Assembly (NCBI GenBank): GCA_049604715.1
Contig: JBMYTV010000001.1
Coordinates: 91,610 to 155,609, forward strand
Source of the DNA: Patescibacteria group bacterium
GTDB lineage: Bacteria; Patescibacteriota; Patescibacteriia; S139-126; S139-133
DNA length: 64,000 nucleotides
Reading direction: 5' to 3'
Under the pieces are notes generated by a model, which was not told where the DNA came from, made no database searches, and worked only from the letters and a program-made list of their open reading frames with translations. A program made the translations under genes and the position numbers. Positions 45,907 through 62,303 of the stretch are shown one piece after another (within the stretch, counting starts at the first letter, position 1; every line of letters begins with the position of its first letter).

Positions 45907-45983
45907 TGGTGGCGGGGGTGGGATTTGAACCCACGACCTCCAGGTTATGGGCCTGGCGAGCTGCCGGACTGCTCTACCCCGCG
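45907..45983 (-). tRNA. tRNA-Met (anticodon CAT)
   Basis: Manual fold: D-arm GAGC/GCTC. Anticodon stem CCAGG/CCTGG with loop CCCATAA. T-arm GTGGG-TTCAAAT-CCCAC. Encoded CCA. 77 nt. First acceptor pair appears to be C:C in my fold. Confidence 0.8.
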
Positions 45984-47646: not shown

Positions 47647-47734
47647 GCCGCGGTGGCGGAACTGGTAGACGCGCGGGACTCAAAATCCCGTATGCTTTTC
47701 GCATGTGAGAGTTCGATTCTCTCCCGCGGCACCA
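47647..47734 (+). tRNA. tRNA-Leu (anticodon CAA)
   Basis: Acceptor GCCGCGG/CCGCGGC. Anticodon stem CGGGA/TCCCG with loop CTCAAAA. Long variable arm TATGCTTTTCGCATGTG. T-arm GAGAG-TTCGATT-CTCTC. CCA encoded. 88 nt. Confidence 0.85.
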
Positions 47735-47737
47735 TAC

Positions 47738-47814
47738 GGCAGGGTAGCTCAGGTGGTTAGAGCGAGGGAATCATAACCCCTAGGTCGTGGGTTCAAGTCC
47801 CACCCCTGTCACCA
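47738..47814 (+). tRNA. tRNA with CAT anticodon (Met or lysidine-modified Ile2)
   Basis: GGCAGGG acceptor. D-arm GCTC/GAGC. Anticodon loop ATCATAA. T-arm GTGGG-TTCAAGT-CCCAC. CCA encoded. 77 nt. G1:C72 is paired, so not an initiator by that criterion. Confidence 0.8.
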
Positions 47815-47940: not shown

Positions 47941-48156
47941 ATATGTACAAGTTTAGACAACGCGTATCCCTGTGTTATTAATTAGAAAAAGAGTAATATA
48001 TGTTACTTTGTTTACCACATTCAATTAAAAACAACCAACGCGTTGTGAACAAAGCGGTTAGCCGACAGGCTATAGGTTGTTTTGCTTTTTCAGGAAATAA
48101 CGGTTGATTTCACACTCCGATATTTGTTCACGCAATCTAGTATCCCTCCATGCATT

Positions 48157-48188
48157 AGCACGTTAGTACGTGCTATTTATTTTTTTTC
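48157..48188 (+). terminator. plus-strand rho-independent terminator
   Basis: agcacgt-tagt-acgtgct followed by atttattttttttc. The U-tract exists only on the plus strand, although the stem overlaps the stop of the minus-strand trmB-like gene. Confidence 0.6.
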
Positions 48189-48940
48189 AGTTCCTCTTTT
48201 AAATTTGAAATTAGAGTTCGAATTGAGTTAGCAATATGTTGGTTCTTGATGATAAAAGACTTCACATCATCGTCGATAAATGAAAAACATACCTTATCAT
48301 CATAAACGTCTATTTCAGCAGTAGGGAGGGCTACTTGATCTTTACTTAGCTTAACCTCATTTGTTTCAATAGTTGACTTACTACCTTCTTCCTTGGCTGT
48401 ATAGATGACCTCAAAGTTAATATTATTCTTTTCAAATAGTTTTTTGTGGTCTATCTTATCTTTACTTTTGTTATATACAAGTAGATCACGGTCATAAAAT
48501 TCATAGACTGTTTTGTTTTGTGCTGCTGCAATTTGTTGAGCAATGATGTTTGAACCTTCTTTGCCTTTATAAAATTCTAAACCAATTTCACTGTCTGTAC
48601 TAATGTTGGTTTTTGTCTCCAAGATTTGATCAATAGACTTTGCTAAGTCAATCTTTTTGTTGTTCTCTTTGACACTTTTTTCAGCAAGGTTCTTAACATA
48701 CTCTACAAGATTGTCACTGTCTTCTGGAAAATAAAATGTTGATTTGCCATATGTGCCAATACGAATAAGTGCTTTGTGAACAAGACTATCAAGAATTTTT
48801 TTTGCAGCTGGATGAGTAACATCAAGATGACGTGCAATTTCTGATGCTTTAGCCTTATAATTCTCAGTTAAGTAAATATATGTCTCAGCTTCATTGTTAG
48901 TTAGACCGAGTTGTACCAAATTATCCTTTAACATAGCCAA
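48173..48940 (-). CDS. TrmB-family transcriptional regulator
   Basis: N-terminal winged HTH LVQLGLTNNEAETYIYLTENYKAKASEIARHLDVTHPAAKKILDSLVHKALI. C-terminal TrmB-like effector domain. 255 aa. Very AT-rich. Confidence 0.7.
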   Translation of the reverse strand: MAMLKDNLVQLGLTNNEAETYIYLTENYKAKASEIARHLDVTHPAAKKILDSLVHKALIRIGTYGKSTFYFPEDSDNLVEYVKNLAEKSVKENNKKIDLAKSIDQILETKTNISTDSEIGLEFYKGKEGSNIIAQQIAAAQNKTVYEFYDRDLLVYNKSKDKIDHKKLFEKNNINFEVIYTAKEEGSKSTIETNEVKLSKDQVALPTAEIDVYDDKVCFSFIDDDVKSFIIKNQHIANSIRTLISNLKEELKKNK

Positions 48941-49148
48941 ATAAAATTAAACCTCATTAAACAACTATACTTAATTAATTTAATCGAGTTAAGTATAGCA
49001 TATATTTATCATAGCTGTTTAGGGAAGTCAAATGACATTTTCTCTTTCTGTGGATAAGTTTGTGGCACTTTGGTTCATTTTACTATTTTAGTTACATACG
49101 TAATAACTTTCTATTATTTTTTCCTTAAAATAAGGTAAAAAAAGGTAA

Positions 49149-49176
49149 CTTGACGAATTTAATAATAGGAATATAA
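49149..49176 (+). promoter_or_regulatory. near-consensus sigma70-type promoter (TTGACG-N16-TATAAT)
   Basis: TTGACG at 49149-49154 and TATAAT at 49171-49176. Confidence 0.55.
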
Positions 49177-49293
49177 TAGTAAGTGAAGATAATCTACGAT
49201 TTATGCAGAAAGCAACCGTTACAAAACATTTCGCAACAAACATGTTGTTTTGCTGCACAAATCCAGGGCCAGTATTAATCAGTTAGCACATAA

Positions 49294-49320
49294 AACCAGA
49301 GAGTCTCTCTGGATTTTTTG
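49294..49320 (+). terminator. rho-independent terminator/attenuator in the leader upstream of the GreA_C-like ORF
   Basis: ccagagag-t-ctctctgg followed by attttttg. Ends 20 nt before the ATG at 49341. Confidence 0.65.
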
Positions 49321-49340
49321 TGCCTTAAACAAGCGTACAT

Positions 49341-49562
49341 ATGCAGTATGCAAATGCAGGGTCAAAAGTCACAGTCAAGCTCAATGGTATTGAGCAGGAT
49401 TTGACGATTGTTGACCCTGAGTCAATTGACCCAAATAGCGGCTGCATTTCTTTTAATTCACCAATTGCGCAAGCTCTTATTGGGACAGAGCCTGGTGATA
49501 CTCGAGAAATTGATTTGCCAAACGGCAATCATGTGAGTCTCGAGATAGTTTCTGTCATATAG
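49341..49562 (+). CDS. GreA/GreB C-terminal (FKBP-like) domain-only protein
   Basis: 73 aa. DPNSGCISFNSPIAQALIGTEPGDTREIDLPNGNHVSLEIVSV parallels the GreA C-terminal domain ...DPSNGKISISSPLARALIGK.VGD.VEV..P.G...EILEV. No N-terminal coiled-coil domain is encoded upstream. Confidence 0.6.
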   Translation: MQYANAGSKVTVKLNGIEQDLTIVDPESIDPNSGCISFNSPIAQALIGTEPGDTREIDLPNGNHVSLEIVSVI

Positions 49563-49661
49563 TCTTGAGAAAGTTCTTTATGTGAAGACCCTTCGTTTTG
49601 AGAATGGGTTTTTTATTTTTGTGAGTACTTTTGTCATTTGGTATAATACAGGTATAAATAT

Positions 49662-50423
49662 ATGGGTACTATAATAGCACTAGTTAATCAAAAGGGTGGT
49701 GTAGGCAAGACCACAACAGCTGTGAACTTAGCAGCTTTTTTGGCGCGGTCTGATAAGCGAGTGCTTATTGTTGACCTTGATCCACAAGCAAATGCATCAT
49801 CGGGTCTAGGTGTAAAGTTATCTGATGACGATCCGCACATTTATCATGCCATGCTCGAGCCAGGGCAGTCATCAAGTAGTGTGAAGTCAACTGCTGTGGA
49901 TAGTTTGCATGCTATGCCGTCACACCGTGATTTAGCAGGTGCTGCGGTTGAGTTGGTGAGTGTTGAAGAGCGTGAGTATCGTTTGCGTAAGGCACTTGAT
50001 GCTCTGCGTCCAATGTATGATTACATTATTATTGATTGTCCGCCTTCACTTGGTTTATTGACGATCAACGGGCTTGTAGCTGCAGATCACATTATCATCC
50101 CAGTACAGGCAGAGTATTATGCTCTTGAAGGGCTAGGGCAGCTACTTCACACAATTCAGTTAATACAAACACACCTGCATCCGGAGTTAAATATTCTTGG
50201 CGCTGTTATCACTATGTATGATCAGCGCAACAAACTATCTCAGTCAGTCATGCAAGAGCTATACGGTTACTTTCCAAATAGGATTTTCCGTAGTGTAATT
50301 CCGCGTAATGTCAGACTTGCTGAAGCGCCGTCATATGGACAGGCTATTGCAGATTATGATCCGGGTAGCAAAGGAGCTAAAGCATATGAGCGTTTAGCTC
50401 GAGAGTTGTTAACGCGTTTTTAG
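49662..50423 (+). CDS. parA: chromosome partitioning ATPase ParA/Soj
   Basis: Deviant Walker A NQKGGVGKTTTAVNLAAFLA. 253 aa. Confidence 0.9.
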   Translation: MGTIIALVNQKGGVGKTTTAVNLAAFLARSDKRVLIVDLDPQANASSGLGVKLSDDDPHIYHAMLEPGQSSSSVKSTAVDSLHAMPSHRDLAGAAVELVSVEEREYRLRKALDALRPMYDYIIIDCPPSLGLLTINGLVAADHIIIPVQAEYYALEGLGQLLHTIQLIQTHLHPELNILGAVITMYDQRNKLSQSVMQELYGYFPNRIFRSVIPRNVRLAEAPSYGQAIADYDPGSKGAKAYERLARELLTRF

Positions 50424-50464
50424 CAGTGTATACTAAGATATAACAAGTAAAAGCATATCCCTAC

Positions 50465-51442
50465 ATGCCACAAACAGGACTTGGTCGAGGCCTTGCGTCA
50501 CTTATCCCTGATGCGCCTAAGCCAGAAAAAAAAGAACAAAAGATTGCAGACCGCGCGAGTAAGGCGTGGGGCGGTGTTAATGTGCCAGTAAGTACAGGAG
50601 ATAGTGACACGGCAACTACAAAAGCAGAGAGTAAAGAGGTTCAGGCACCGAGTAAAAATCAAGTTGTTGACATTCCTGTTGAGTTGATTGACGCAAATCC
50701 GTACCAGCCGCGTAAAACATTTGAAGAGCAAGCACTTGATGACTTGGTGGCATCTATTAGTACACATGGAATTCTTCAGCCACTTGTTGTTGTTACGCGA
50801 GGTGATCGCTTTGAGCTTATTGCTGGTGAGCGGCGTTTTCGTGCAGCGCAAAAGGCAGAACTTACACATGTCCCGGTCATTACTCGCGATGTGCCTGAGC
50901 AAGAGCAACTCGAGCTTTCATTGATTGAAAATATTCAGCGACAGAATCTTAATCCAATAGAAGAAGCAGAGAGTTTCACTCAGCTTGGTGACGAGTTTTC
51001 ACTGTCGCAAGAAGAAATAGCAAAAAGAGTAGGCAAGTCACGATCTAGTGTTGCTAACACAATGAGGCTTTTACAATTACCACAAGAGGTAAAGCAATAC
51101 GTAAGGGATGGTAAGCTAACAGAAGGTCATGCAAAGGTTTTGCTTGAGCTAGATTCAGAAGCAAAACAAGTGGCGCTAGCAAAGAAGATCATCAGGCAGC
51201 AATTAACAGTCCGTGATACCACCGCAACAGTGAAGGAGGTTACAGGTAAGTCATCACCACAAAAAAAGAGCGCGACTGATGGTCGGCTCCATGCATGGGA
51301 GCAAAAGTTACAAGCACTTTACGGAACAAAGGCTCATATCAAGGATACAAAAGGAAAGGGTAGGGTTGAACTTGAGTATTTTTCAAATGAAGAGCTAATG
51401 GCGCTTCTTGATAAGCTTACGAGTGTTGATGATTTGAGTTAG
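50465..51442 (+). CDS. parB: chromosome partitioning protein ParB/Spo0J
   Basis: GLGRGLASLIP N-terminus. ParB box LELIAGERRFRAAQKAELTHVPV. HTH SQEEIAKRVGKSRSSVANTMRLL. 325 aa. Confidence 0.9.
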   Translation: MPQTGLGRGLASLIPDAPKPEKKEQKIADRASKAWGGVNVPVSTGDSDTATTKAESKEVQAPSKNQVVDIPVELIDANPYQPRKTFEEQALDDLVASISTHGILQPLVVVTRGDRFELIAGERRFRAAQKAELTHVPVITRDVPEQEQLELSLIENIQRQNLNPIEEAESFTQLGDEFSLSQEEIAKRVGKSRSSVANTMRLLQLPQEVKQYVRDGKLTEGHAKVLLELDSEAKQVALAKKIIRQQLTVRDTTATVKEVTGKSSPQKKSATDGRLHAWEQKLQALYGTKAHIKDTKGKGRVELEYFSNEELMALLDKLTSVDDLS

Positions 51443-52941
51443 CTTTTATTAAACCCAGGAAAGTTAAATATTCCGCGTGAAGATTTTCTGATCGCGGTTT
51501 TTATGTGATCGCGAGCAGAGCGAGTTTTCACAAAATCAAGCCAGTCTTTTGAGGGGCTTTTTCTATTTTTATCAACTATAATTTCTACAACATCACCACT
51601 TTGTAGGTGTGTATCAAGGCCTGCGATATTGTCATTTATTTTTGCGCCACCGCAGTGGTTGCCAAGGTATGTATGCACATGATAAGCAAAGTCGACAGGG
51701 GTGGCTTCTTCAGGTAGCTCAATAACGTCACCTCGAGGTGTAAAGATAAAAATTCGGTCAGTAAAGAAATCAAGCTTAATCTCTTTTAGATACTCTTCTG
51801 TTGCGCCAGTTCTTTTTTGTATATGCGCAAGCTCTTCGATCCATTTCTTTTGTTCTGGAGGGAGCTGGATAGATCCTGAGCGCTTATAGTGCCAATGAGC
51901 CGCTACACCATACTCAGCCTGTTCATGCATTTCTTGAGTTCTGATTTGGATTTCAACTATTTGTCCGTTGTCAGCGAATACAGTTGTATGAAGTGACTTA
52001 TAACCATTTGGTTTTGGCACTGAAATATAGTCTTTGATTCGTCCAGGCATAGGACGCCAAATACTATGCAGCACTCCCATTGATTTATAACAATCAGCAA
52101 TTGAAGGTACAATAATCCGAAGCGCAATAACATCATAGATGTTATTGATATCTCTATTTTTCCGAAGTAGTTTTTTGTACAGACTGTAAACCATTTTCTG
52201 TCTACCAACCACAACAAATGTTTCAATGTCATGTAGGTGTAGTTCTTTGAGAATGCGTTTCTTGATATTTTCTAGGTTCTTGAGCAAGATTCTTTCTGGT
52301 TCTTTACGGAGTGATATAACCCAGTCGTATTCTTTTGGGGACAGCACACGAAATGATGCGTCTTCCAGCTGATGTCTAATTTCATTCATACCAAGTCTGT
52401 TTGCAATAGCAGCGTAAATTTCCAAACTTTCCAGTGCAATACGTCTTTGTTTTTCTGGTGGTAGGAATTGGAGCGTCTGTAGATTATGAAGGCGATCAGC
52501 AAATTTGATAAAAATTACACGAATATCATCAGCCATCGCTAAGAACATTTTACGAAGATTTTCTGCATAGCGTTCAAGTCCACGATATTTCAGTGTACCT
52601 AGTTTTGTTACTCCTTGTACAAGATGTGTAATTTCGCGACCAAAGTTTTTTTCTACGTCTTCAAATGTTCGTTCTGTATCTTCTGGAACATCATGTAGAA
52701 TACCTGCAATAACCATGGTGACGTCCATTTTTAGCCTAGCGAGATTATACGCAGTGTGAAGTGAGTGAATGATATATGGATCACCTGAAGCCCTTTTTTG
52801 GCCGCGGTGAGCTTCCTCAGCAAATTCATACGCAAGCATCAATAAATCAGTGTCAGCATCTGGCTCATACTCCTGAACTTTTTCGATCACATCGTCAATT
52901 GTGATTTGGCTGATTTGGATTTTCTTAATCAATGGCTTCAT
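51439..52941 (-). CDS. rel: (p)ppGpp synthetase/hydrolase, RelA/SpoT family (short form ending after the TGS region)
   Basis: HD domain (HSLHTAYNLA...ILHDVPEDT). Synthetase domain (..YKSLHTTV..). TGS-like IFIFTPRGDVIELPEEATPVDFAYHVHTYLG. 500 aa. No ACT/RRM C-terminal part. Confidence 0.9.
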   Translation of the reverse strand: MKPLIKKIQISQITIDDVIEKVQEYEPDADTDLLMLAYEFAEEAHRGQKRASGDPYIIHSLHTAYNLARLKMDVTMVIAGILHDVPEDTERTFEDVEKNFGREITHLVQGVTKLGTLKYRGLERYAENLRKMFLAMADDIRVIFIKFADRLHNLQTLQFLPPEKQRRIALESLEIYAAIANRLGMNEIRHQLEDASFRVLSPKEYDWVISLRKEPERILLKNLENIKKRILKELHLHDIETFVVVGRQKMVYSLYKKLLRKNRDINNIYDVIALRIIVPSIADCYKSMGVLHSIWRPMPGRIKDYISVPKPNGYKSLHTTVFADNGQIVEIQIRTQEMHEQAEYGVAAHWHYKRSGSIQLPPEQKKWIEELAHIQKRTGATEEYLKEIKLDFFTDRIFIFTPRGDVIELPEEATPVDFAYHVHTYLGNHCGGAKINDNIAGLDTHLQSGDVVEIIVDKNRKSPSKDWLDFVKTRSARDHIKTAIRKSSRGIFNFPGFNKS

Positions 52942-53027
52942 ATACTATAGTGTAGTCATAAATAGTCTCATAATGCAATAAACCCCCGAATATGTCGGAG
53001 GTTTAGTGTGTGGGGTAAAAATGAGAG

Positions 53028-53261
53028 TTATTTTGTAACAAGTTCTCTGAGGTCATACTGCTTGCCTTCAGCTTGCCATTTTTGCAGGGTCTTGAGCGCT
53101 TTTGCAGAAAGTGTAACTTTCATAATTTCTCCTGTAGCAGGATTAAGCAATCGTTTGGTTTGCAAATTTGGCTTGAACTTACGTTTAGTTTTGTTCTGTG
53201 CGTGACTGACGTTATGACCGCTCTGTGCTTTTTTACCTGTGATTTCGCATTTCTTTGCCAT
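53028..53261 (-). CDS. rpmB: 50S ribosomal protein L28
   Basis: MAKKCEITGKKAQSGHNVSHAQNKTKRKFKPNLQ matches the L28 N-terminus. 77 aa. Confidence 0.9.
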   Translation of the reverse strand: MAKKCEITGKKAQSGHNVSHAQNKTKRKFKPNLQTKRLLNPATGEIMKVTLSAKALKTLQKWQAEGKQYDLRELVTK

Positions 53262-53318
53262 ATGTGTGTGATTAATACGTACGATAAACTTTACTATACA
53301 TACTGTGCTTTGTCAAGG

Positions 53319-55577
53319 CTATTTTTTACGCCCTCGACCTCTTTTTGGCTTTTTTGCAGCTTCTTCTAGAAGCTCCTCACATTGTGCTTGTGTTAGACTT
53401 TCAGGCTCTGTATCTTTTGGAATCTTAGCATTTGTTTTACCATCGGTAATATATGGACCATATCTGCCATGTTGTACAATGATGTCTGTGCCTTCAAATG
53501 TTTTGATGATTTTTTCAGCTTCTTTTTTCTTGTATTCAGCTACAAGCTCTCGGGCACGCGCTTCTTCAATTTCGTATGGGTCATCTTCTTTTAGTGAAAT
53601 ATATTTTTTGCCAAGTTGTAGATATGGACCATATCGACCAATATTTACAATAATGTCACCATCATCAGTATCAGAGTAGACAACGCGGGGAAGTTTTAGT
53701 AGATGAAGCGCTTGATCGAGTGTAATGGTTTCAATAGAGAGCTCTTTTGGAATTGATGCAAAAACTGGCTTTTCTTCATCATCCTTTGAGCCATGTTGTA
53801 CAAATGGTCCAAAGCGGCCAATACGCACGTAAATAGGCTTATCCGTTTCAGGATGTTTGCCAAGTTCTTTCATTTCTGTTGCTTCTTCCTTAGTAATGCT
53901 CTCTTCTTTTTCTTCAATTGTGGCGTGAAATGGTTTGTAAAATTTTTGTAGCATAGTGACACGTTCTAAGTTTCCATTTGATATTTCGTCAAATTCATTT
54001 TCGACCTCTGCGGTAAAATCAAAGTCAACAATATTTGGGAAATGCTCTACAAGGAGGTCAGTTACAAGCTTTGCAACATCAGTTGGTTTCAATGCATTGC
54101 CTTCTTTGTATACGTAGTTGCGAGCTTGTACTGTACTGATCGTAGGTGCATACGTAGATGGACGACCAATGCCAAGCTCTTCTAGTTTCTTAACCAAACT
54201 TGCCTCAGTGTATCGCCCTGGCGGCTGAGTAAAGTGTTGTTCTGGTCGGATTTTTTCAAGCTTTAGTGTTTGTCCTTTTTCTACCTGAGGAAGTTCGTTT
54301 TCTTGAATCTTATCTGGATATACTTTGAGCCAACCTGGGAAATCAATAACTGAGCCACTTACTCTAAATGTATATACATTAGCAGCGATAGCAATGGTTG
54401 TTTGTTTGGTCTTGGCTGGTTTCATTTGACTTGCGACCGCGCGCTGCCAGATAAGTTGATACAACTTAAACTGTTTGCTATCAAGATGAGTTTTTATACT
54501 CTCTGGTGTACGACTGGCACTTGTAGGTCTGACTGCTTCGTGGGCTTCTTGGGCATTTTTAGTTTTGCCAGCAAATTGTTTTACCTCTACGTATTCTTTA
54601 CCGTATTCAGACTCAACATGTGATGCTGCCTCTGCCTGAAAGCGTTTTGCTAGGGTTGTTGAGTCAGTACGCATGTATGTGATCAAACCAACAGCACCTT
54701 CGCTACCAAGGTCAATGCCTTCGTATAATTGTTGTGCTAGTACCATTGTTTGTTTTGCTGAATATCCAAGTATAGTATTAGCAGCTTGCTGTAGGGTTGA
54801 TGTAGTAAATGGCGGGTATGGTTTTTTATTGACTGTCTTTTGTGTAATGTCGTCTACAGTAAATGGCTCTTTTTCAAGTTTTTTTACAATCTCTGTAGCA
54901 TCCTTTTCGTTGTTAATTGCAAACTTGTCTAGAGTTTTACCATCTTTTTTTGCAAGTACCGCTTCAAAGTTGTCTTTGTCATTATTCAACAGAGCATGGA
55001 TTGACCAGTATTCTTGTGGGTCAAATGCTTCAATTTCGCGTTCACGTTCTACGATAAGTCTGACGGCAACAGATTGTACGCGACCAGCAGATAATCCGCG
55101 GGCAATTTTCTTCCAAAGAAGAGGAGATAGTTCGTATCCTACAAGTCTATCAAGAATACGGCGAGCTTGCTGCGCTTCTACAAGGTTGAAATCAATAGTT
55201 CGAGGGCTTTCAAGTGATTCAAGAATGGCTTCTTTAGTAATTTCATGAAATACTATTCGCTTGATTTTGTCCTCTGGGGCCTCAAAGATCTGTTGTAAGT
55301 GCCATGAAATAGCCTCACCTTCGCGATCTTCATCAGTAGCATAATAAATTTCACTAGCTTTATTGGCTAGCTTTTTTAGTTCTGTGACCTTTTTTTGTTT
55401 GTCTTTAGGGATTACATAGTCAGGTGAAAAGTCACCATCGACATCAACGCCCATTTTGCTTTTTGGTAAGTCTCTGATGTGACCAAAAGAAGACATAACA
55501 GTAAATTCTTTGCCTAAGAACTTACTTATAGTCTTTGCTTTGGTTGGAGACTCTACAATTACTAGTTTGTCTGCCAT
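53319..55577 (-). CDS. topA: DNA topoisomerase I
   Basis: TOPRIM N-terminus MADKLVIVESPTKAKTISKFLG. Active-site Tyr region. 752 aa with a Lys/Arg-rich tail instead of multiple Zn ribbons. Confidence 0.95.
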   Translation of the reverse strand: MADKLVIVESPTKAKTISKFLGKEFTVMSSFGHIRDLPKSKMGVDVDGDFSPDYVIPKDKQKKVTELKKLANKASEIYYATDEDREGEAISWHLQQIFEAPEDKIKRIVFHEITKEAILESLESPRTIDFNLVEAQQARRILDRLVGYELSPLLWKKIARGLSAGRVQSVAVRLIVEREREIEAFDPQEYWSIHALLNNDKDNFEAVLAKKDGKTLDKFAINNEKDATEIVKKLEKEPFTVDDITQKTVNKKPYPPFTTSTLQQAANTILGYSAKQTMVLAQQLYEGIDLGSEGAVGLITYMRTDSTTLAKRFQAEAASHVESEYGKEYVEVKQFAGKTKNAQEAHEAVRPTSASRTPESIKTHLDSKQFKLYQLIWQRAVASQMKPAKTKQTTIAIAANVYTFRVSGSVIDFPGWLKVYPDKIQENELPQVEKGQTLKLEKIRPEQHFTQPPGRYTEASLVKKLEELGIGRPSTYAPTISTVQARNYVYKEGNALKPTDVAKLVTDLLVEHFPNIVDFDFTAEVENEFDEISNGNLERVTMLQKFYKPFHATIEEKEESITKEEATEMKELGKHPETDKPIYVRIGRFGPFVQHGSKDDEEKPVFASIPKELSIETITLDQALHLLKLPRVVYSDTDDGDIIVNIGRYGPYLQLGKKYISLKEDDPYEIEEARARELVAEYKKKEAEKIIKTFEGTDIIVQHGRYGPYITDGKTNAKIPKDTEPESLTQAQCEELLEEAAKKPKRGRGRKK

Positions 55578-55637
55578 AAAGTGCGTAAAAAATAAACTAG
55601 TATGTGTTATAACGAAAAACTTTTATTCTGTCAAAAA

Positions 55638-56729
55638 TTATACAATTTTGACGTACTGCCGTCCGCCAGTATCAGTGATGTACCCTTTCATTTCTAGGTG
55701 GGTAATAAGGCGTGCTGTACTTGCTGCATCAAGGCCTGTTTTTTGTACAATAGAGTCAAATGAGGTAGGTTCAAATGATATAAATGCATAAAGAGCCTCC
55801 TCTTGTTCAGTAAGTAGATCGCGGGGTATTGCTTTGTCTTTCATGCTATGATCAGAGATTCCTAAAAGAGAAAGCACATCATCAGCAGAGGATACGACAG
55901 CCGCGCCTTTTTGAAGTAGTGCATGGCATCCAGTAGACAGTGGTGAGAACATAGAGCCAGGCACTGCTCCAACTGATCGGTTGTATTCTAGTGCTTGGTA
56001 GGCAGTGATATTTGCTCCTGACTTTTGTGCTGCTTCAATAACCAAGGTTGCCTGAGAAAGTCCAGCTATGATTCGGTTTCGTTGCGGAAAATGAGTTTTT
56101 AGAGGGGTTGCGCCTATAGGTCTCTCTGATACAAGCAGTCCACCCTCACTTATAATCTTTTTAGCTATGAATCTATTGTGAGATGGGTATATGCTGTTGG
56201 TATCAAGGCCAGATGCAAGTACAGCTATAGTACGTCCATTTCTGGTAAGGCATGTTGTATGTGCATGCGCATCAACTCCAAGAGCCAGTCCAGATACAAT
56301 AGTTGCCCCAGCACGTATAGCAGATGGTACAAGTGTTTCGACAACTTGTTTGCCATATGGTGACATTTTTCGTGTACCAACTACTGACAAAAGCAGCTCA
56401 TCGTCCCCAAGGTCGCCTTTGTAATATAGCACTGGGGGAGCGTCAGGAATTTCTTTAAGTAGTTTTGGATAGGCTTCATCTTCAAGTGTGACAGCAAGTA
56501 CTTTATTTTGTACAAGTTCTGCAATAAGGCTGTCAGGATTTACTTCACTGCGCCTGAGTGTAATCTCTTGGGCTATGTTAGATGGAATGCCGGCAGTTAT
56601 AAAGTCACCATGCGGGGCATGCCAGGCTTCTTCAAGTGAATTAAAGTGTTTACGTATTTTTTGAAAACGCACTGGGCCAATGTTTGGAATTTTTGTAAAC
56701 GCTAGCCAATACGATAGTTCTGAGTTCAT
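55638..56729 (-). CDS. dprA: DNA-processing protein DprA (Smf)
   Basis: N-terminal SAM-like LSYWLAFTKIPNIGPVRFQKI. Rossmann-like core. Classic dprA-topA arrangement. 363 aa. Confidence 0.9.
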   Translation of the reverse strand: MNSELSYWLAFTKIPNIGPVRFQKIRKHFNSLEEAWHAPHGDFITAGIPSNIAQEITLRRSEVNPDSLIAELVQNKVLAVTLEDEAYPKLLKEIPDAPPVLYYKGDLGDDELLLSVVGTRKMSPYGKQVVETLVPSAIRAGATIVSGLALGVDAHAHTTCLTRNGRTIAVLASGLDTNSIYPSHNRFIAKKIISEGGLLVSERPIGATPLKTHFPQRNRIIAGLSQATLVIEAAQKSGANITAYQALEYNRSVGAVPGSMFSPLSTGCHALLQKGAAVVSSADDVLSLLGISDHSMKDKAIPRDLLTEQEEALYAFISFEPTSFDSIVQKTGLDAASTARLITHLEMKGYITDTGGRQYVKIV

Positions 56730-56873
56730 ATGGTTCCCTCCTTCTTAATTAAGGTCATATTGTACCATTATATATAAGTGTGTGAATACCTTGACTATAT
56801 GCTTATTTTATGGTTTAAGGAAGATAGGTAGTATACCGTTCACATAAACGGCACTTAAGCCGGGAGGTATATA

Positions 56874-57125
56874 ATGAAAACTAAAAAAAAGAGAAGACGC
56901 AAACGCGAAAGTAGGAGGAAGGTAGTAAAGAGAAAAAGAGCAGTGAAGCGTAAGTCAGGAAATGAGTTTCGGGCACATTACAAACATGGAAGGCAACCGG
57001 GTGAAGTTCAATGCCCAGAGTGTAGCGGTACTATAAGTCATGACTCACCGCTTAATGCAGCGGGTGAGTGCCCACATTGCCGAGTTCGCGTACGCGATCG
57101 CCTTAACTTTCGTTGCTCAGCGTAG
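56874..57125 (+). CDS. small highly basic zinc-ribbon protein
   Basis: 83 aa. KKKRRRKRESRRKVVKRKRAVKRK N-terminus, then CPEC...CPHC. Stop overlaps the mfd 3' end by 9 nt (convergent). Confidence 0.45.
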   Translation: MKTKKKRRRKRESRRKVVKRKRAVKRKSGNEFRAHYKHGRQPGEVQCPECSGTISHDSPLNAAGECPHCRVRVRDRLNFRCSA

Positions 57126-60113
57126 TAGTTGAGCTAATTTTGTCAGCCAGTCGTCACCAAGATGACTGGTTTTAATTTTTAGTTCAGTGCCATCATAGAT
57201 AAAGTTGTCATTTTTATCTAGCAGAGATCGTATGTGTTTTTTATTTACATCAGGAACAAACTGCATTTTAATAAGCGCCTCAAAGGGGTCTTTTTTTTGT
57301 ACAAGCCCATGCATGGAGTAAATACCGAGCCGTTGGCAAGATATACGCAAGGTATGAATAGCTAAAATATTTTGTGCGTACTGCGACCGCGGGACAGGGA
57401 GTAGCCTGTCAGCTGCTTCTTTTAATTCATCAGTGTTTTTTGTATAAGCAAGTTCCTGATAAACGCGTAGTCGCTCGCCAATAGGCATGGCTGATTCATG
57501 TTCAAGCGTTGCTGGAATAGGTAGGTCAATGGTTGGGTCGATTGCATACACTTTTTCGTCTGTATTTTTTTCTTGAGTAATTGCTTCTTCTATTAGTTCA
57601 GTATAAAGCGCAAGTCCAACAGCTGCGATCTGACCATGTTGTTCTTTGCCAAGGAGATTGCCAGCACCACGGATTTCTAGATCACGGACTGCTATATCAA
57701 AGCCAGCGCCAAGCTCGTATGCTGACTGTAGGGCTTGGAGGCGTTTAGCTGCAATGCCTGATAGCTTTTGTTTTTGAAATAAGAAAAATGCATACCCTTG
57801 CGTTTCAGAGCGACCAATACGACCGCGCAATTGATAAAGTTGTGACAAACCAAAGTGGGCCGCATTATCTACGATCAGAGTATTTGCATTAGCAACATCA
57901 AGACCATTTTCGATGATGGTTGATGCAACAAGTACATCAAGCTTTCCTTGATCAAAGGCGCCCATAACGTGCGCTAGTTCTTTTGGAGGAAGTGAACCAT
58001 GAGCTACACCAATCCGTGCAGTTGGTACAAGTTTTTCTAATTGTTTCACAATACCAGGTATTTCTTTTACTTTTCGTACCAGGTAGTAGCACTGACCGTT
58101 TCGTTTCATTTCGCGTTCAATAGCGTCGCGGATAAGTTCTTTGTTGTGTGGGGTTATGCTCGTGGTTACAGGTAAGCGCCCAGGTGGCGGAGTTTGAATA
58201 ATAGAAATATCACGAATACCTGCTAGTGAATAGTTAAGTGTACGTGGGATTGGAGTTGCGGACAGAGAAAGTGTATGCAAGCGTGGCTTTGCTTTTTTAA
58301 GTTTTTCTTTGTCTTTCACGCCAAATTTCTGTTCTTCATCGACTATTAGCAGTTCAAGATTTTTAAATGATACATCTCGAGAAAGTAGTCGGTGAGTACC
58401 AATGATGATATCAACTTCTCCTGATTTTACTTTTTCAACTATTTCTTTTTGTTCTTTGCTTGTTTGCCAGCGTGATAGCAAGGAAACAGTAATTCCTCGT
58501 CCTGAAAGACGTTTGGCAAATGTATCAAAGTGTTGCTGTACAAGAATTGTTGTTGGCGCAAGTAGCGCAACCTGGCCACCGTGGAGTGCGATGCGATATG
58601 CAGAGCGTAAGGCAAGTTCAGTTTTGCCAAAGGCGACATCACCGCATAGTAGACGATCCATCGGATGACCAGACGCCAGGTCTGTATTGATATCAGAGAG
58701 CGCCTGTGATTGGTCGGGCGTGAGTTCATATGGAAAATCATCAGCTAAAGATTCTTCTTCAGGGAGTACTGCTAACGGACGGACACGTGCTAGTTGGCGC
58801 TTTGCTGAAAGCGCGATAATGTCATGGGCTATGAGTATAGTTTCTTCTCTGATTTTTTTAACAATTGATGGCCAGGTAGATCCTGAGAGTCTGTTAACTT
58901 TCGGGTGTGCCTCTCCGATGTACTTGGTTATTTTGTGTATTTGGTAGGGCGGTACATATAGCTTGTCTCCTTGAGCATAGGTGAGCATCAGGTATTCAAA
59001 TTCTATGTCATCAATGATTTGCGTCACCATACCGCTAAATCGTCCAACGCCATGATCTTGATGTACAACATACTCACCAACATTAAGAGAGCTGAGTAGT
59101 AGTTTGGTTTTTTTCGTATTTGTTTTTTTAATTTTTTGTTTTGCTTCAATAAAGCACGCAGTTTTAAAAAAGTGCGAATACCACGGAGTCATGTAGGGGA
59201 ATGGATCAACTATTGTTTTAGCACATGGAAACTTCGTTTTATTCGAAGTGATGGTTGTTTCAATATCAAGTGATTCTAACTTTTTCGACAAAAGACTCGC
59301 AGGAATTTTTGTAGGCAATTCAGTAAAGCCAAATGAGATAGCATGCTCGTGAGATCCCAAGGAAATTATTATTTGCTTTTTTGGCAGTTCCTTTTTGAGG
59401 AATGGTTGTATGAGTGTTTGTTCAGATAAAACTACTATACCTGCTGTTTTGAGCCACGATCCAAAAGAGAACACTGCTTCTTTTTCTTGCTGCGGGATGG
59501 TGAGTGATGTGATAGCCTCTTTCTTGTCATCAGTAATTTTTGCAATACTCTCTATAGTCTTATTATCTAGTGTTATCCGAATGTATGTATCAAATCCAAA
59601 TGGCCATATATCTATAACTGAGCCTCGAATAGAAAACATACCCTCTTCATGTATTGAGGAAACCTCAAAGAAGCCAAGTTTTAGTAGTAGTGATCGTATA
59701 GCTCGCGTACTTATCTGACTCTTTTTTGTCAGAGTGGTATATGTATCAGGGTCTGGTATATACGCTGTTTTTGCTTGTAGTTCTTGCGTTGTAGTTAGGA
59801 TTATCTCAGGCTGCTGGTTAAGTAGCGGCATAAGCCAAGGCGTAGATTCATCCTTGGTGTTAGTAATGGCATACGGATGGTTGTGGTATTGTTTCCAATA
59901 CTCAAGTAATAGTAGTGCTTTTTCGCGTTCTTGCTGCGTATGTAAACACCACAAAATGGCTGTTGGTGATTTCGGATGGGGGTCCGACAACAGCTTAGTT
60001 ATGACAAATGTTTGACTGGATAGATTGGGTACATCTGAGACAGTTGTTTGCTTCTGATTATGTATTGTCTGCCAAACATCTGCAATTTTAGCTTGTAGAT
60101 GTGTTTTTGTCAT
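57117..60113 (-). CDS. mfd: transcription-repair coupling factor
   Basis: 998 aa. Superfamily-2 helicase motifs (LLCGDVAFGKTELA, LLIVDEEQKFGV). RNA-polymerase-interacting and TRG-type C-terminal region. Confidence 0.9.
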   Translation of the reverse strand: MTKTHLQAKIADVWQTIHNQKQTTVSDVPNLSSQTFVITKLLSDPHPKSPTAILWCLHTQQEREKALLLLEYWKQYHNHPYAITNTKDESTPWLMPLLNQQPEIILTTTQELQAKTAYIPDPDTYTTLTKKSQISTRAIRSLLLKLGFFEVSSIHEEGMFSIRGSVIDIWPFGFDTYIRITLDNKTIESIAKITDDKKEAITSLTIPQQEKEAVFSFGSWLKTAGIVVLSEQTLIQPFLKKELPKKQIIISLGSHEHAISFGFTELPTKIPASLLSKKLESLDIETTITSNKTKFPCAKTIVDPFPYMTPWYSHFFKTACFIEAKQKIKKTNTKKTKLLLSSLNVGEYVVHQDHGVGRFSGMVTQIIDDIEFEYLMLTYAQGDKLYVPPYQIHKITKYIGEAHPKVNRLSGSTWPSIVKKIREETILIAHDIIALSAKRQLARVRPLAVLPEEESLADDFPYELTPDQSQALSDINTDLASGHPMDRLLCGDVAFGKTELALRSAYRIALHGGQVALLAPTTILVQQHFDTFAKRLSGRGITVSLLSRWQTSKEQKEIVEKVKSGEVDIIIGTHRLLSRDVSFKNLELLIVDEEQKFGVKDKEKLKKAKPRLHTLSLSATPIPRTLNYSLAGIRDISIIQTPPPGRLPVTTSITPHNKELIRDAIEREMKRNGQCYYLVRKVKEIPGIVKQLEKLVPTARIGVAHGSLPPKELAHVMGAFDQGKLDVLVASTIIENGLDVANANTLIVDNAAHFGLSQLYQLRGRIGRSETQGYAFFLFQKQKLSGIAAKRLQALQSAYELGAGFDIAVRDLEIRGAGNLLGKEQHGQIAAVGLALYTELIEEAITQEKNTDEKVYAIDPTIDLPIPATLEHESAMPIGERLRVYQELAYTKNTDELKEAADRLLPVPRSQYAQNILAIHTLRISCQRLGIYSMHGLVQKKDPFEALIKMQFVPDVNKKHIRSLLDKNDNFIYDGTELKIKTSHLGDDWLTKLAQLLR

Positions 60114-60157
60114 CAGTATTGAAAGTGTACCAATGAAGAATTATCAATGCAAATAAA

Positions 60158-60181
60158 ATACCGCCTATAAGCGGTTTTTTG
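60158..60181. terminator. bidirectional hairpin terminator between pth and mfd
   Basis: aaataaaat-accgc-ctataa-gcggt-tttttg. A-run and T-run on the two sides. Confidence 0.6.
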
Positions 60182-60358
60182 ATTATACACATCATGCTCG
60201 CTATCAGCGCAAGGGAAGTAGAGCATAAGCTTCACGTCCCTAGCTATAGGCTACTTGATGAGGGAGGAGGGGGCCCTTACCGTTCACCACTGATAGTGAG
60301 CATGATAGGTACAATCTTCTGGTACCTAATCTTAGGAAAGACCCGTAATTTTGTCAAC

Positions 60359-60958
60359 CTATGTTTTTGTGAGTATTGTGTGGAGTACTTTTGGAAGATC
60401 AGCAAAGACATGAGCAAATATAGTGTTCAGCTCATGTAGTTCATCACTAGAGAACGATTGCAGTACATATGCGTCAGTTGGAATGGTGTCTGATTTGCCA
60501 ACTCCGATGCGGATTCGAGTGATTTCTTTTGTCTTAAGTAGTCGTTGAATTGATCCTACTCCGCGGTGACCTGCGTCTCCTGAGTTTGTAGCCACTTTGT
60601 ATTCGCCAAATGGTATATCAACATCATCATGAATAACGACAACATGGTTCTTTGTGGTTTTATAAAAAGAGAGTAGCTTTTGTACTGTTTCGCCTGATTT
60701 ATTCATAAATGTACCAGGTTTAACAAGCATGAATTGCTGATTTTGCGCATTCACAGATGTAACAGTTGCTGTTAGTTTTTTCTGATCATGCCAGTCAGTT
60801 TGATCAAGCTTTCTTGCTATATAGTCGAGAAAAAGAAAGCCTACATTATGCCTTGTGTCTTCGTATTTAAGTCCTGGATTGCCAAGTCCCACTAGATAGA
60901 TTGTATCTTCATGCGCTTGAACGCTGTTTTCTTGAGATTTTGAAAAAAATGAGAACAT
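60359..60958 (-). CDS. pth: peptidyl-tRNA hydrolase
   Basis: IYLVGLGNPGLKYEDTRHNVGF. Start set at the internal Met so as not to overlap der. About 199 aa. Confidence 0.85.
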   Translation of the reverse strand: MFSFFSKSQENSVQAHEDTIYLVGLGNPGLKYEDTRHNVGFLFLDYIARKLDQTDWHDQKKLTATVTSVNAQNQQFMLVKPGTFMNKSGETVQKLLSFYKTTKNHVVVIHDDVDIPFGEYKVATNSGDAGHRGVGSIQRLLKTKEITRIRIGVGKSDTIPTDAYVLQSFSSDELHELNTIFAHVFADLPKVLHTILTKT

Positions 60959-60959
60959 G

Positions 60960-62303
60960 TTATTTGAGTGCTGTAATGTATATTTTGATCGGTACACCGT
61001 GGAAGCCAAATTGTTCACGTAGTTGATTTTCTAAAAAGCGAACATATGATCCATGAAGGGATCTTTGGTATTTTATCGTAAGTTCAAACACAGGCGGGTT
61101 TACTGATACTTGTCGCATACGGTAGATATATGGATGTGCCACGCCTTTATCGCGTGAGGGTTTGTGTCTTTTTATAACTTTCTTGATAAATTTATCGAGT
61201 GCATTGTCATCAATCTTTCGGAAACGTTCTTCCCAAACATCTAGTGTTACATCTAATATGTTTGATACGCGTTGGTTTTCCATAGCTGATGTAAATATAA
61301 TTGGTGCAAAGTCTAGGAACGGCAAGTTAGCGCGTATGTACTTTTCGTATTCGTTGATAGTATTAGTTTCTTTGTCCTGAATAAGATCCCACTTGTTGGC
61401 AATCAATATAACGCTATTGCCGGTTTCGATAACTCTCTCTGCTAAGTGCTTGTCCTGGTGACTAAGTCTCTTTGTAATATCAAGTACAAGTAGCGCAACA
61501 TGAGAGTGGCGTAGGTTTTTGAGAGAAAGATCAATGCTGTATTTTTCAATGAGATCTCCTTTTGTTTTTTTGCGTCTAATTCCTGCAGTGTCAATGATTT
61601 GGATGCGATGCTGTTTATAATCAATGTGAATGTCGTGCGCATCGCGGGTTGTGTGGGCAATGGGAGAGACGATAGCGCGCTTTTTTCCAGCTAGAGAATT
61701 TAATATAGAAGATTTGCCAACATTAGGCTGTCCGATGATGGCTAGTTTGATATCAGGATTTAGGATAGATTGGCCAGCTTCATCAGCTTCTTTGATATGA
61801 GGTATATACTTCAAAATTGCATCAAGCAGCTCATCAGTACCTTCGCCAGTAACAGCAGAAACAGGATAAAGGTCGTTGGTGCCGAGTGGTGATGCCTCAA
61901 GAAGGGCTTGGTCTCTCTCTTTAGTCTTATCAACTTTATTGATAGCTATGACTATCGGTTTGTTATATTTTTTACAAACAGAATAAAGTTCAGCATCAAA
62001 AGGCGTGAGTCCATCACGATGATCTATGACAATTACGATCATGTCAGCCTGATCAGCCTGTGTTTCAGCCTGCATGATTGTTTCTTCTTTTATATCCTCA
62101 TCTGACTCCTCTGATAGATAACCAGCTGTATCAATGAGTGAAAATGTTGCATCGCGCCACATAACAATACCTTGGTTATAGTCACGTGTGGTGCCGGCCA
62201 CTGGGCTTTCGAGTGCTTTGCGTTGTCCTACTAGGGTATTGAATAGTGTTGACTTTCCAACATTTACACGTCCAATAAGCGCAACTTGTGGTAGTTTTTT
62301 CAT
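60960..62303 (-). CDS. der: ribosome-associated GTPase Der (EngA), tandem GTPase domains plus KH-like domain
   Basis: Two G-domains, each with a G1 loop: ALIGRVNVGKSTLFN and AIIGQPNVGKSSILN. 447 aa. Confidence 0.95.
   Translation of the reverse strand: MKKLPQVALIGRVNVGKSTLFNTLVGQRKALESPVAGTTRDYNQGIVMWRDATFSLIDTAGYLSEESDEDIKEETIMQAETQADQADMIVIVIDHRDGLTPFDAELYSVCKKYNKPIVIAINKVDKTKERDQALLEASPLGTNDLYPVSAVTGEGTDELLDAILKYIPHIKEADEAGQSILNPDIKLAIIGQPNVGKSSILNSLAGKKRAIVSPIAHTTRDAHDIHIDYKQHRIQIIDTAGIRRKKTKGDLIEKYSIDLSLKNLRHSHVALLVLDITKRLSHQDKHLAERVIETGNSVILIANKWDLIQDKETNTINEYEKYIRANLPFLDFAPIIFTSAMENQRVSNILDVTLDVWEERFRKIDDNALDKFIKKVIKRHKPSRDKGVAHPYIYRMRQVSVNPPVFELTIKYQRSLHGSYVRFLENQLREQFGFHGVPIKIYITALK

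Follow-up and report, generated by a model that had tools for sequence, protein, structure and literature searches.

A stand-alone Gre C-terminal domain gene in Patescibacteria, placed behind a conserved promoter, leader and terminator, may be expressed by terminator read-through

Factors acting at the secondary channel of RNA polymerase are described as a docking domain joined to a coiled coil extending as far as the active site (PMC4598747), and it is their globular domain which docks on the beta' rim helices (PMC4598747, PMC7527559). Rnk, Gfh1 and Rv3788 are competitors of Gre and DksA that bind the polymerase and do not stimulate cleavage (PMC4598747). Leader terminators have been reported for genes of the same group: in Escherichia coli two-thirds of greA transcripts end at the leader terminator as GraL (PMC2836576), the autoregulation of E. 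coli GreA needs the leader in cis and a catalytically active GreA, in a GreA/GraL loop that has been described as hard to classify (PMC6829880), and the greA/rnk family is seventh in rank among gene families that have 5' terminators, over a range from Proteobacteria to Clostridia (PMC2965389). Here we describe a comparable locus in a Patescibacteria group bacterium. In a stretch of 64,000 nucleotides (nt) of its contig JBMYTV010000001.1, low in GC (40%), which we call the window and whose numbering is used throughout, a gene for a protein of 73 amino acids (aa) on the plus strand (ATG at 49341 to TAG ending at 49562) encodes the C-terminal domain of Gre factors alone and stands behind a promoter, a leader and an intrinsic terminator. 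Leader terminators of greA and rnk are thus already known, and what is added here is a short frame, conserved in position, that abuts the terminator.

The original prediction for this stretch held that the 73-aa open reading frame (ORF) is the Gre C-terminal domain only and is smaller than Rnk, and our searches agree with it on both points. The product, below the mini-protein, is identical in sequence to NCBI MGB0756975.1, a 'GreA/GreB family elongation factor' from a Patescibacteria metagenome-assembled genome (208,711-nt contig). When it was compared with Gre C-terminal and Rnk models, as had been proposed, only the former exceeded its cut-off: Pfam PF01272 (GreA_GreB C-term) matches with 67.1 bits (cut-off 26.9, E 1.4e-18) over profile positions 8-75 of 77, and Pfam returned no other family, PF03449 included. 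The NCBIfam equivalog models of GreA, GreB and Rnk match via their C-terminal ends alone and far under cut-off (greA TIGR01462, 50.9 bits versus 139; Rnk NF004396, 34.3 versus 109; NF004548, 23.7 versus 126). By the family profile the mini-protein aligns to residues 86-155 of E. coli GreA and 49-122 of Rnk, itself 136 aa long, and begins at GreA-equivalent residue ~82-86; it has neither the N-terminal coiled coil with an acidic tip (PF03449) nor a short one of the Rnk type (~45 aa).

The AlphaFold model of the mini-protein (pLDDT 83) consists of the elements E-E-E-H-E-E with a single helix. Foldseek matched it at E <= 1e-3 to 14 PDB chains, all of them GreA, Gfh1, Rnk or GreB, with TMq of 0.73-0.90 (0.73 for one GreA/GreB chain, 0.76-0.90 for the others cited) and root-mean-square deviations mostly of 1.3-3.1 A, the matched portion being the C-terminal part of solved chains, plus one modelled GreA (9a7t). 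At the level of the model, the globular fold of Gre, Gfh1 and Rnk, a beta-barrel with one helix, is confirmed for the mini-protein. The most conserved part is the helix motif ISFNSPIAQALIG, of the pattern I-S-x-x-S-P-(I/L)-(A/G)-x-A-L-x-G, by which Gre factors dock on RNA polymerase. Among 25 mini-proteins I36 and S37 of this motif are invariant, as is G52, and G34, S40, P41, A45 and G48 are nearly invariant. This motif aligns to GreA 120-132, with I36-S37 equivalent to GreA I120-S121 and S-P to S124-P125, and the S121P change in GreA weakens RNA polymerase binding (PMC7527559).

We do not regard the mini-gene as a pseudogene. Compared with its close relative in locus L018 (83% nucleotide identity) it carries 26 synonymous and 6 non-synonymous codon changes, a ratio by which it is under purifying selection. 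Among 5.8 billion clusters we found a close subfamily of seven members, 73-75 aa long and 53-76% identical to the window protein.

Upstream of it the sigma-70-type promoter (49150-49177, plus strand) consists of the -35 element TTGACG (49150-49155), a 16-nt spacer and the -10 element TATAAT (49172-49177). With 11 of 12 consensus matches it is the best site in 48000-51000, where promoter-like sites as a class are near chance (10 found, 8.4 expected). The predicted transcription start, at about 49184-49187, would give a leader of approximately 135 nt up to the end of the U-tract (49184-49319), where the intrinsic terminator T1 (49296-49319, plus strand) is formed by the stem-loop CCAGAGAG-U-CUCUCUGG at 49296-49312, followed by AUUUUUU at 49313-49319. 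The stem of T1 has 7 base pairs, 4 of them GC, with A and T6 after it, and the hairpin has an energy of -9.6 kcal/mol; the region scan gave 7 terminator-like sites versus 2.1 expected. From the end of the U-tract to the mini-gene ATG there are 21 nt.

Enough upstream sequence for comparison is present in the relatives L005/L006, L007, L009, L001 and L010, which together with the window make six loci; L018 is a partial locus whose contig starts just downstream of the promoter, and it retains the leader frame and the terminator. The -35 element CTTGA(C/T) is invariant across the aligned loci, and a -10 element (TATAAT, TAATCT, TATACT, TATTAT, CATACT or GATAAT) is found at equal distance in all six. 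In the five relatives the transcribed stretch is 125-140 nt, the terminator hairpins are GC-rich (-8.9 to -12.8 kcal/mol) and carry T-runs, and 25-43 nt separate the stem end from the mini-gene ATG, so that, as with GraL, a sense intrinsic terminator lies between the promoter and a Gre-family start codon in all relatives with upstream sequence. These alignments confirm that the order of promoter, leader and terminator is kept well beyond chance in loci at 53-76% protein identity. The unit that had been predicted is therefore real and conserved, with each of its elements at the position given for it, and the lack of a terminator in relatives, named in advance as the observation that would speak against it, is not what we see.

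Comparison of the window with L018 shows where the constraint lies. Identity is 88% in the short frame region (84 nt), 63% in the spacer from terminator to ATG, which also has a 5-nt indel, 71% in the downstream intergenic region and 80-83% in the coding regions, from which it follows that the leader is under constraint. No TAnnnT box is found in this spacer in the window and its close relatives L017 and L018, and taken with the low identity and the indel it means that no separate promoter is conserved there in the lineage of the window, as had been supposed. Read-through of T1 is consequently the simplest route to expression of the mini-gene.

In each of the six loci the leader itself contains a frame of 27-37 codons that begins with ATG; in the window it spans 49203-49286 on the plus strand (ATG, 27 codons with the predicted translation MQKATVTKHFATNMLFCCTNPGPVLIS, and TAG). 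In five of six loci the distance from the start of CTTGAC to this ATG is 53-55 nt, and in six of seven, the window among them, no other AUG precedes it in the predicted transcript. The stop of the frame falls in a range that runs from 10 nt upstream to 28 nt downstream of the base with which the terminator stem opens. The three frames differ in stop codons across the loci, with none in the leader frame and 13 and 6 in the two others, and the per-locus shuffle P of the frame is 0.02-0.17. Between the window and L018 its length and stop are unchanged, the 10 substitutions are distributed as 5/0/5 over codon positions 1/2/3, and the last 14 codons have just two changes, both synonymous. Tandem codons occur (TGC-TGC in the window and L018, ACA three times in L005), and Cys is present in all six leader peptides (10 of 204 residues) with no consistent codon run and no rationale from physiology; none of the six belongs to a Pfam or NCBIfam family. 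Conserved in position and not in sequence, the frame would resemble a cis-acting leader peptide more than a functional micropeptide.

The leader frame has no ribosome-binding site, and this is no objection, because Shine-Dalgarno motifs precede only 4 of the 52 window ORFs of at least 150 aa, which is background (7.9% of random sites). Many window genes have -10-like hexamers 5-14 nt before their ATG, from which one may suppose that the 5' leaders of this lineage are very short or missing.

The same leader may fold into a long imperfect hairpin, H1 (49193-49268, plus strand; core 49198-49263), with UGCAG-AAAGCAAC as its 5' arm, GUUGUUUU-G-CUGCA as the partner arm and the leader AUG within the stem base. 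An equivalent hairpin, CA(A/G)ACAAC / GUUGUUUG, is present in L018, L005, L007 and L001, and the two arm substitutions between the window and L018 turn G-U into A-U and keep the pairing. Against shuffles the stability of H1 is marked in L007 (z -4.0), L001 (-3.8) and L018 (-2.6), and it is not significant in the window (-0.96), L010 (+0.3) and L005.

It would be logical to suggest, from these data, that the promoter, the terminated leader and the mini-gene are a single unit, in which translation of the leader frame probably modulates read-through and the product is a docking domain; to this whole explanation we give a probability of about 45%. The strong conserved promoter would drive the leader into the efficient-looking T1, most transcripts would stop there as a structured short RNA, and the mini-protein would be made only from polymerases that read through. 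That read-through of the terminator gates the expression of the mini-gene appears to us the sounder part and is rather probable; its ribosome-dependent version is a tentative proposal, somewhat on the doubtful side. If a ribosome translating the short frame followed the polymerase closely, it would by its geometry block the T1 hairpin and let transcription continue, and with no ribosome loaded H1 would hide the leader AUG and T1 would form. In attenuation of the pyrBI type a ribosome near the polymerase prevents the terminator hairpin in this way, and no exclusive antiterminator is needed. In every locus the short frame ends within ribosome reach of the terminator. The mini-protein would then dock at the beta' rim helices, at the entrance of the secondary channel, without reaching the active site, and would occupy or block the Gre/DksA site with no stimulation of RNA cleavage, a role like the occlusion or competition of Rnk, Gfh1 and Rv3788, which its domain content leads us to propose.

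Several points weigh against this explanation. The promoter and terminator are calls made from consensus and conservation. The leader peptides of distant loci are 28% identical, compared with 26-27% in wrong frames, so a test of peptide-level conservation does not discriminate the frame from the two others. The hairpin arms are A/C-rich and U/G-rich, which itself depletes stop codons, and the window (49183-49278) and L005 each have another open frame as well; for both reasons the shuffle test overstates the significance of the leader frame. The leader AUG is paired in H1, and in the window and L018 the stop lies 8-10 nt upstream of the stem, where a terminating ribosome would barely touch it. 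The five more distant loci have -10-like hexamers between terminator and ATG, which makes a promoter of their own possible. As to the product, the mini-protein cannot be the catalytically active GreA on which autoregulation in E. coli depends. In E. coli specific binding to the polymerase seems to require the two GreA domains together, and overexpression of the globular domain by itself does no harm (PMC7527559), and these two facts count against a role as a strong competitor.

The best surviving alternative, which we consider a serious though clearly weaker candidate, is a leader of the GraL type without any role of translation, where a fixed partial terminator sets a low constant ratio of mRNA to short RNA, the frame is a by-product of arm composition, and the short RNA of H1 and terminator may be a small regulatory RNA acting in trans. 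The E. coli greA leader behaves so, with its constant two-thirds termination and with GraL acting in trans and in cis. The unconserved peptide sequence, the partial openness of other frames and the burial of the leader AUG in H1 fit such a leader well, as do the significant stability of H1 in L007, L001 and L018 and the two arm changes that keep its pairing. A by-product would hardly be expected, however, to have its ATG fixed within 3 nt in five of six loci and placed as the first AUG in six of seven, to contain no stop in any locus and to show no substitution at codon position 2 among 10 changes; H1, besides, lacks significance in the window, L005 and L010, and no consensus structure was found.

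We find it unlikely that two adjacent genes are combined here, one for a micropeptide or small RNA and the other for the mini-protein, with its own weak or leaderless-type promoter overlapping the terminator tail. The -10-like boxes directly 5' of the ATG of many window genes that have no Shine-Dalgarno site would speak for it, and so would the hexamers TAATAT (L005), TAATAT (L010), TAAGAT (L007), TATTAA (L001) and TAAAAT (L009), 6-14 nt before the mini-gene ATG, of which the L005 one fits a promoter (TTGTGC-17-TAATAT). Overlap of stop codons with terminators is also frequent in compact genomes. An AT-rich spacer of 25-43 nt, on the other hand, should contain such hexamers by chance, the spacer is the least conserved stretch of the locus and has no box in the window, L017 and L018, and the two parts keep a tight linkage and spacing in every locus, which speaks for a single unit.

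A riboswitch, or another leader that senses a ligand or protein and switches between antiterminator and terminator folds, is very improbable. The original prediction had spoken of attenuator or riboswitch-like control; the terminator-gated expression in it stands and the riboswitch does not, because no RNA family, no consensus fold and no conserved antiterminator was found. Rfam gave no leader family for the whole window at the gathering cut-off, for 47-51 kb at E <= 10 or for the six related loci at E <= 5, where the matches, to RsmY and Trp_leader, are at chance level. One of these concerns the most divergent leader, L009 (636-752), whose match to RsmY, a CsrA-sponge RNA, has 26.2 bits (E 0.0066; gathering score 57). 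This leader has GGA motifs, and they and the terminator are the probable cause of the match. The window leader with its terminator does fold better than shuffles (z -2.7), the window and L005 contain segments A and B, both complementary to the 3' arm of H1, and greA and rnk leaders of other phyla have antiterminators (Naville and Gautheret, PMC2965389). Nevertheless, when nascent transcripts were folded with the 3' arm left off, the terminator 5' arm did not pair consistently and was unpaired in four of six loci (window, L007, L001 and L010), and we found no mutually exclusive antiterminator and terminator hairpins of the trp type. RNAalifold found no consensus structure for the seven leaders (the MAFFT alignment was poor, with a 7-pair artefact and no formal covariation), whose sequence is strongly divergent between loci and has no conserved unpaired core.

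The last alternative, a decayed greA whose 3' half survives as the mini-ORF and whose N-terminal part became the leader, may be dismissed, for although the mini-ORF starts exactly at the domain boundary and no full-length greA is found in the window (tblastn) or in the 10 kb beyond its end, the 26 to 6 ratio of synonymous to non-synonymous changes effectively refutes a pseudogene, 31 residues are invariant among six aligned members of the 73-75 aa subfamily, an in-frame TAA (49326-49328) stands five codons upstream of the mini-gene ATG, the 138 nt from leader ATG to gene ATG, with the terminator inside, are fewer than the 75-aa domain needs, complete stand-alone domains are common among cluster representatives (see below), and the frameshifted N-terminal domain that the original prediction had named as the sign of a pseudogene was looked for in three frames of 48941-49340 and is not there (neither PF03449 nor any other Pfam family, E up to 10).

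Proteins of this architecture are not confined to the subfamily. When 1.84 billion representatives were searched exhaustively with the profile, 5354 matched, and among the top 150 about 40 are complete proteins, 69-90 aa long, with the Gre C-terminal domain alone, by which we consider the stand-alone domain a widespread architecture; our full-text search of the literature found no description of it. The wider metagenome mini-proteins (P0017, P0067, P0141 and P0173, of which P0067 and P0173 are labelled Patescibacteria) are like the window protein in size (69-90 aa), in having the complete domain only and in the G-x-I-S-x-x-S-P...G motif. They are merely 35-43% identical to it, their neighbours differ (SSB, a thymidylate-synthase-like gene or small ORFs), and no leader terminator was found in their loci L012 and L013. 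In L015 (3640-3991) the stand-alone domain gene of P0141 (74 aa) is preceded by two overlapping ORFs of 69 and 49 aa, without a Pfam match. Scans of genomes and metagenomes for further loci of the subfamily gave full-length greA genes only, and GreA proteins of 153-164 aa do occur in other Patescibacteria. The original prediction did not include this abundance in metagenomes, the open frame of the leader or the precedent of greA/rnk leader terminators (PMC2836576, PMC6829880, PMC2965389).

The neighbourhood is also conserved. A divergent TrmB-like winged-helix gene (48173-48940, minus strand) is separated from the mini-gene by an intergenic region of 400 nt (48941-49340), and downstream follow parA (49662-50423) and parB (50465-51442), both on the plus strand. 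The synteny of TrmB-like gene, intergenic region, mini-gene, parA and parB is kept in L005/L006, L007, L009, L001 and L010 where contigs reach, and the arrangement of TrmB, leader, mini-gene and parAB is specific to the seven-member subfamily. A second terminator, T2 (49584-49620, plus strand; bulged stem GAAGACCCUUC...GAA-UGGGUUUU and a T-run), follows the mini-gene, with similar hairpins and T-runs in L018, L005, L007, L009 and L008; the mini-gene is hence flanked by terminators on both sides and forms a unit separate from parA, which has its own promoter-like site TTGTGA-17-TATAAT (49619-49647, plus strand), also conserved in L018.

In the intergenic region the only perfect DnaA box of the window, TTATCCACA (49049-49057, minus strand), lies about 100 nt upstream of the leader promoter, and TGTGGA[TA]A[AG] is kept at its place in L005, L007, L009, L001 and L010. 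We considered an oriC at this locus and rejected it: the DnaA box is conserved, but the GC skew is positive across the window without a change of sign. DnaA may be a regulator of the divergent promoters beside parAB. A conserved inverted repeat, ACTA-TTT-TAGT (49082-49092; in L007 TTAACTATTTTAGTTAA), about 60 nt upstream of the -35 element, overlaps a promoter-like site of the minus strand (49113 to 49085) and is probably the operator of the divergent TrmB-like regulator; L007 and L010 have three TrmB-family paralogues in tandem. Further downstream, and in L019 as well, the minus strand (51439-62303) carries a cluster of nucleic-acid housekeeping genes, which are RelA/SpoT-like (51439-52941), ribosomal protein L28, topoisomerase I (53319-55577), DprA (55638-56729), Mfd (57117-60113), peptidyl-tRNA hydrolase and a Der/EngA-like GTPase (60960-62303). 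Three tRNA genes are at 45910-45983, 47647-47731 and 47738-47811. A phage search gave five weak matches, all in unannotated records.

Returning to the explanation by translation-modulated read-through, we may go further and suggest, as a speculation we hold rather improbable, that the leader is a sensor: a pausing or backtracked polymerase would let the ribosome catch up and melt the terminator, switching on a mini-protein that caps the beta' rim, in a feedback loop. The conserved DnaA box and the adjacent parAB may link such a loop to the replication cycle. If this were true, transcription-translation coupling would feed back, in ultra-small Patescibacteria, on a class of secondary-channel factors without a coiled coil. 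The position of the short frame against the terminator makes ribosome-dependent read-through a concrete hypothesis that mutations can address, in a lineage without Shine-Dalgarno sites, and a naturally selected protein made of the docking domain only would be a minimal 'cap' for the secondary-channel site and a natural tool to separate docking from catalysis.

In comparison with the known systems, the locus shares with GraL and with the greA and rnk leaders the strong promoter, the short leader and the terminator just before a Gre-family start codon, and with GraL also the expectation that most transcripts end in the leader, the conserved stem and the possibility that the terminated leader is a small RNA. 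The differences are the length (about 135 nt here, 40-60 nt for GraL), the addition of a conserved open frame and a long upstream hairpin, the absence of sequence or Rfam similarity to the greA/rnk leaders (Rfam coverage of those leaders is not established), and the antiterminator, present in each of the leaders of Naville and Gautheret (PMC2965389) and not found here. The regulated gene lacks the catalytic coiled coil that autoregulation in E. coli requires, and the host belongs to Patescibacteria, outside the coverage of the greA/rnk-leader surveys; this variant would extend attenuation of Gre-family genes to that phylum. The globular C-terminal fold is common with Rnk (E. coli, Pseudomonas; PDB 3bmb) and Gfh1 (TMq 0.78-0.85); a coiled coil is still present in Rnk (136 aa), where it is short, and in Gfh1 and Rv3788 (~156-161 aa), where it is full, whereas the mini-protein (73 aa) has none.

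In the pyrBI leader and in the leader peptides of trp, his and leu a short leader frame ends at or inside the terminator upstream of the regulated gene. The locus described here has this placement of the frame in common with them, with the position conserved and not the peptide, and it contains tandem codons (Cys-Cys in the window and L018, Thr three times in L005) that form no consistent run. It differs in that neither a regulatory amino acid that stands out nor a U-rich pause region is evident, that no antiterminator hairpin could take the place of the terminator as in trp, and that what stands behind its leader is a factor that binds the polymerase itself and not a biosynthetic operon.

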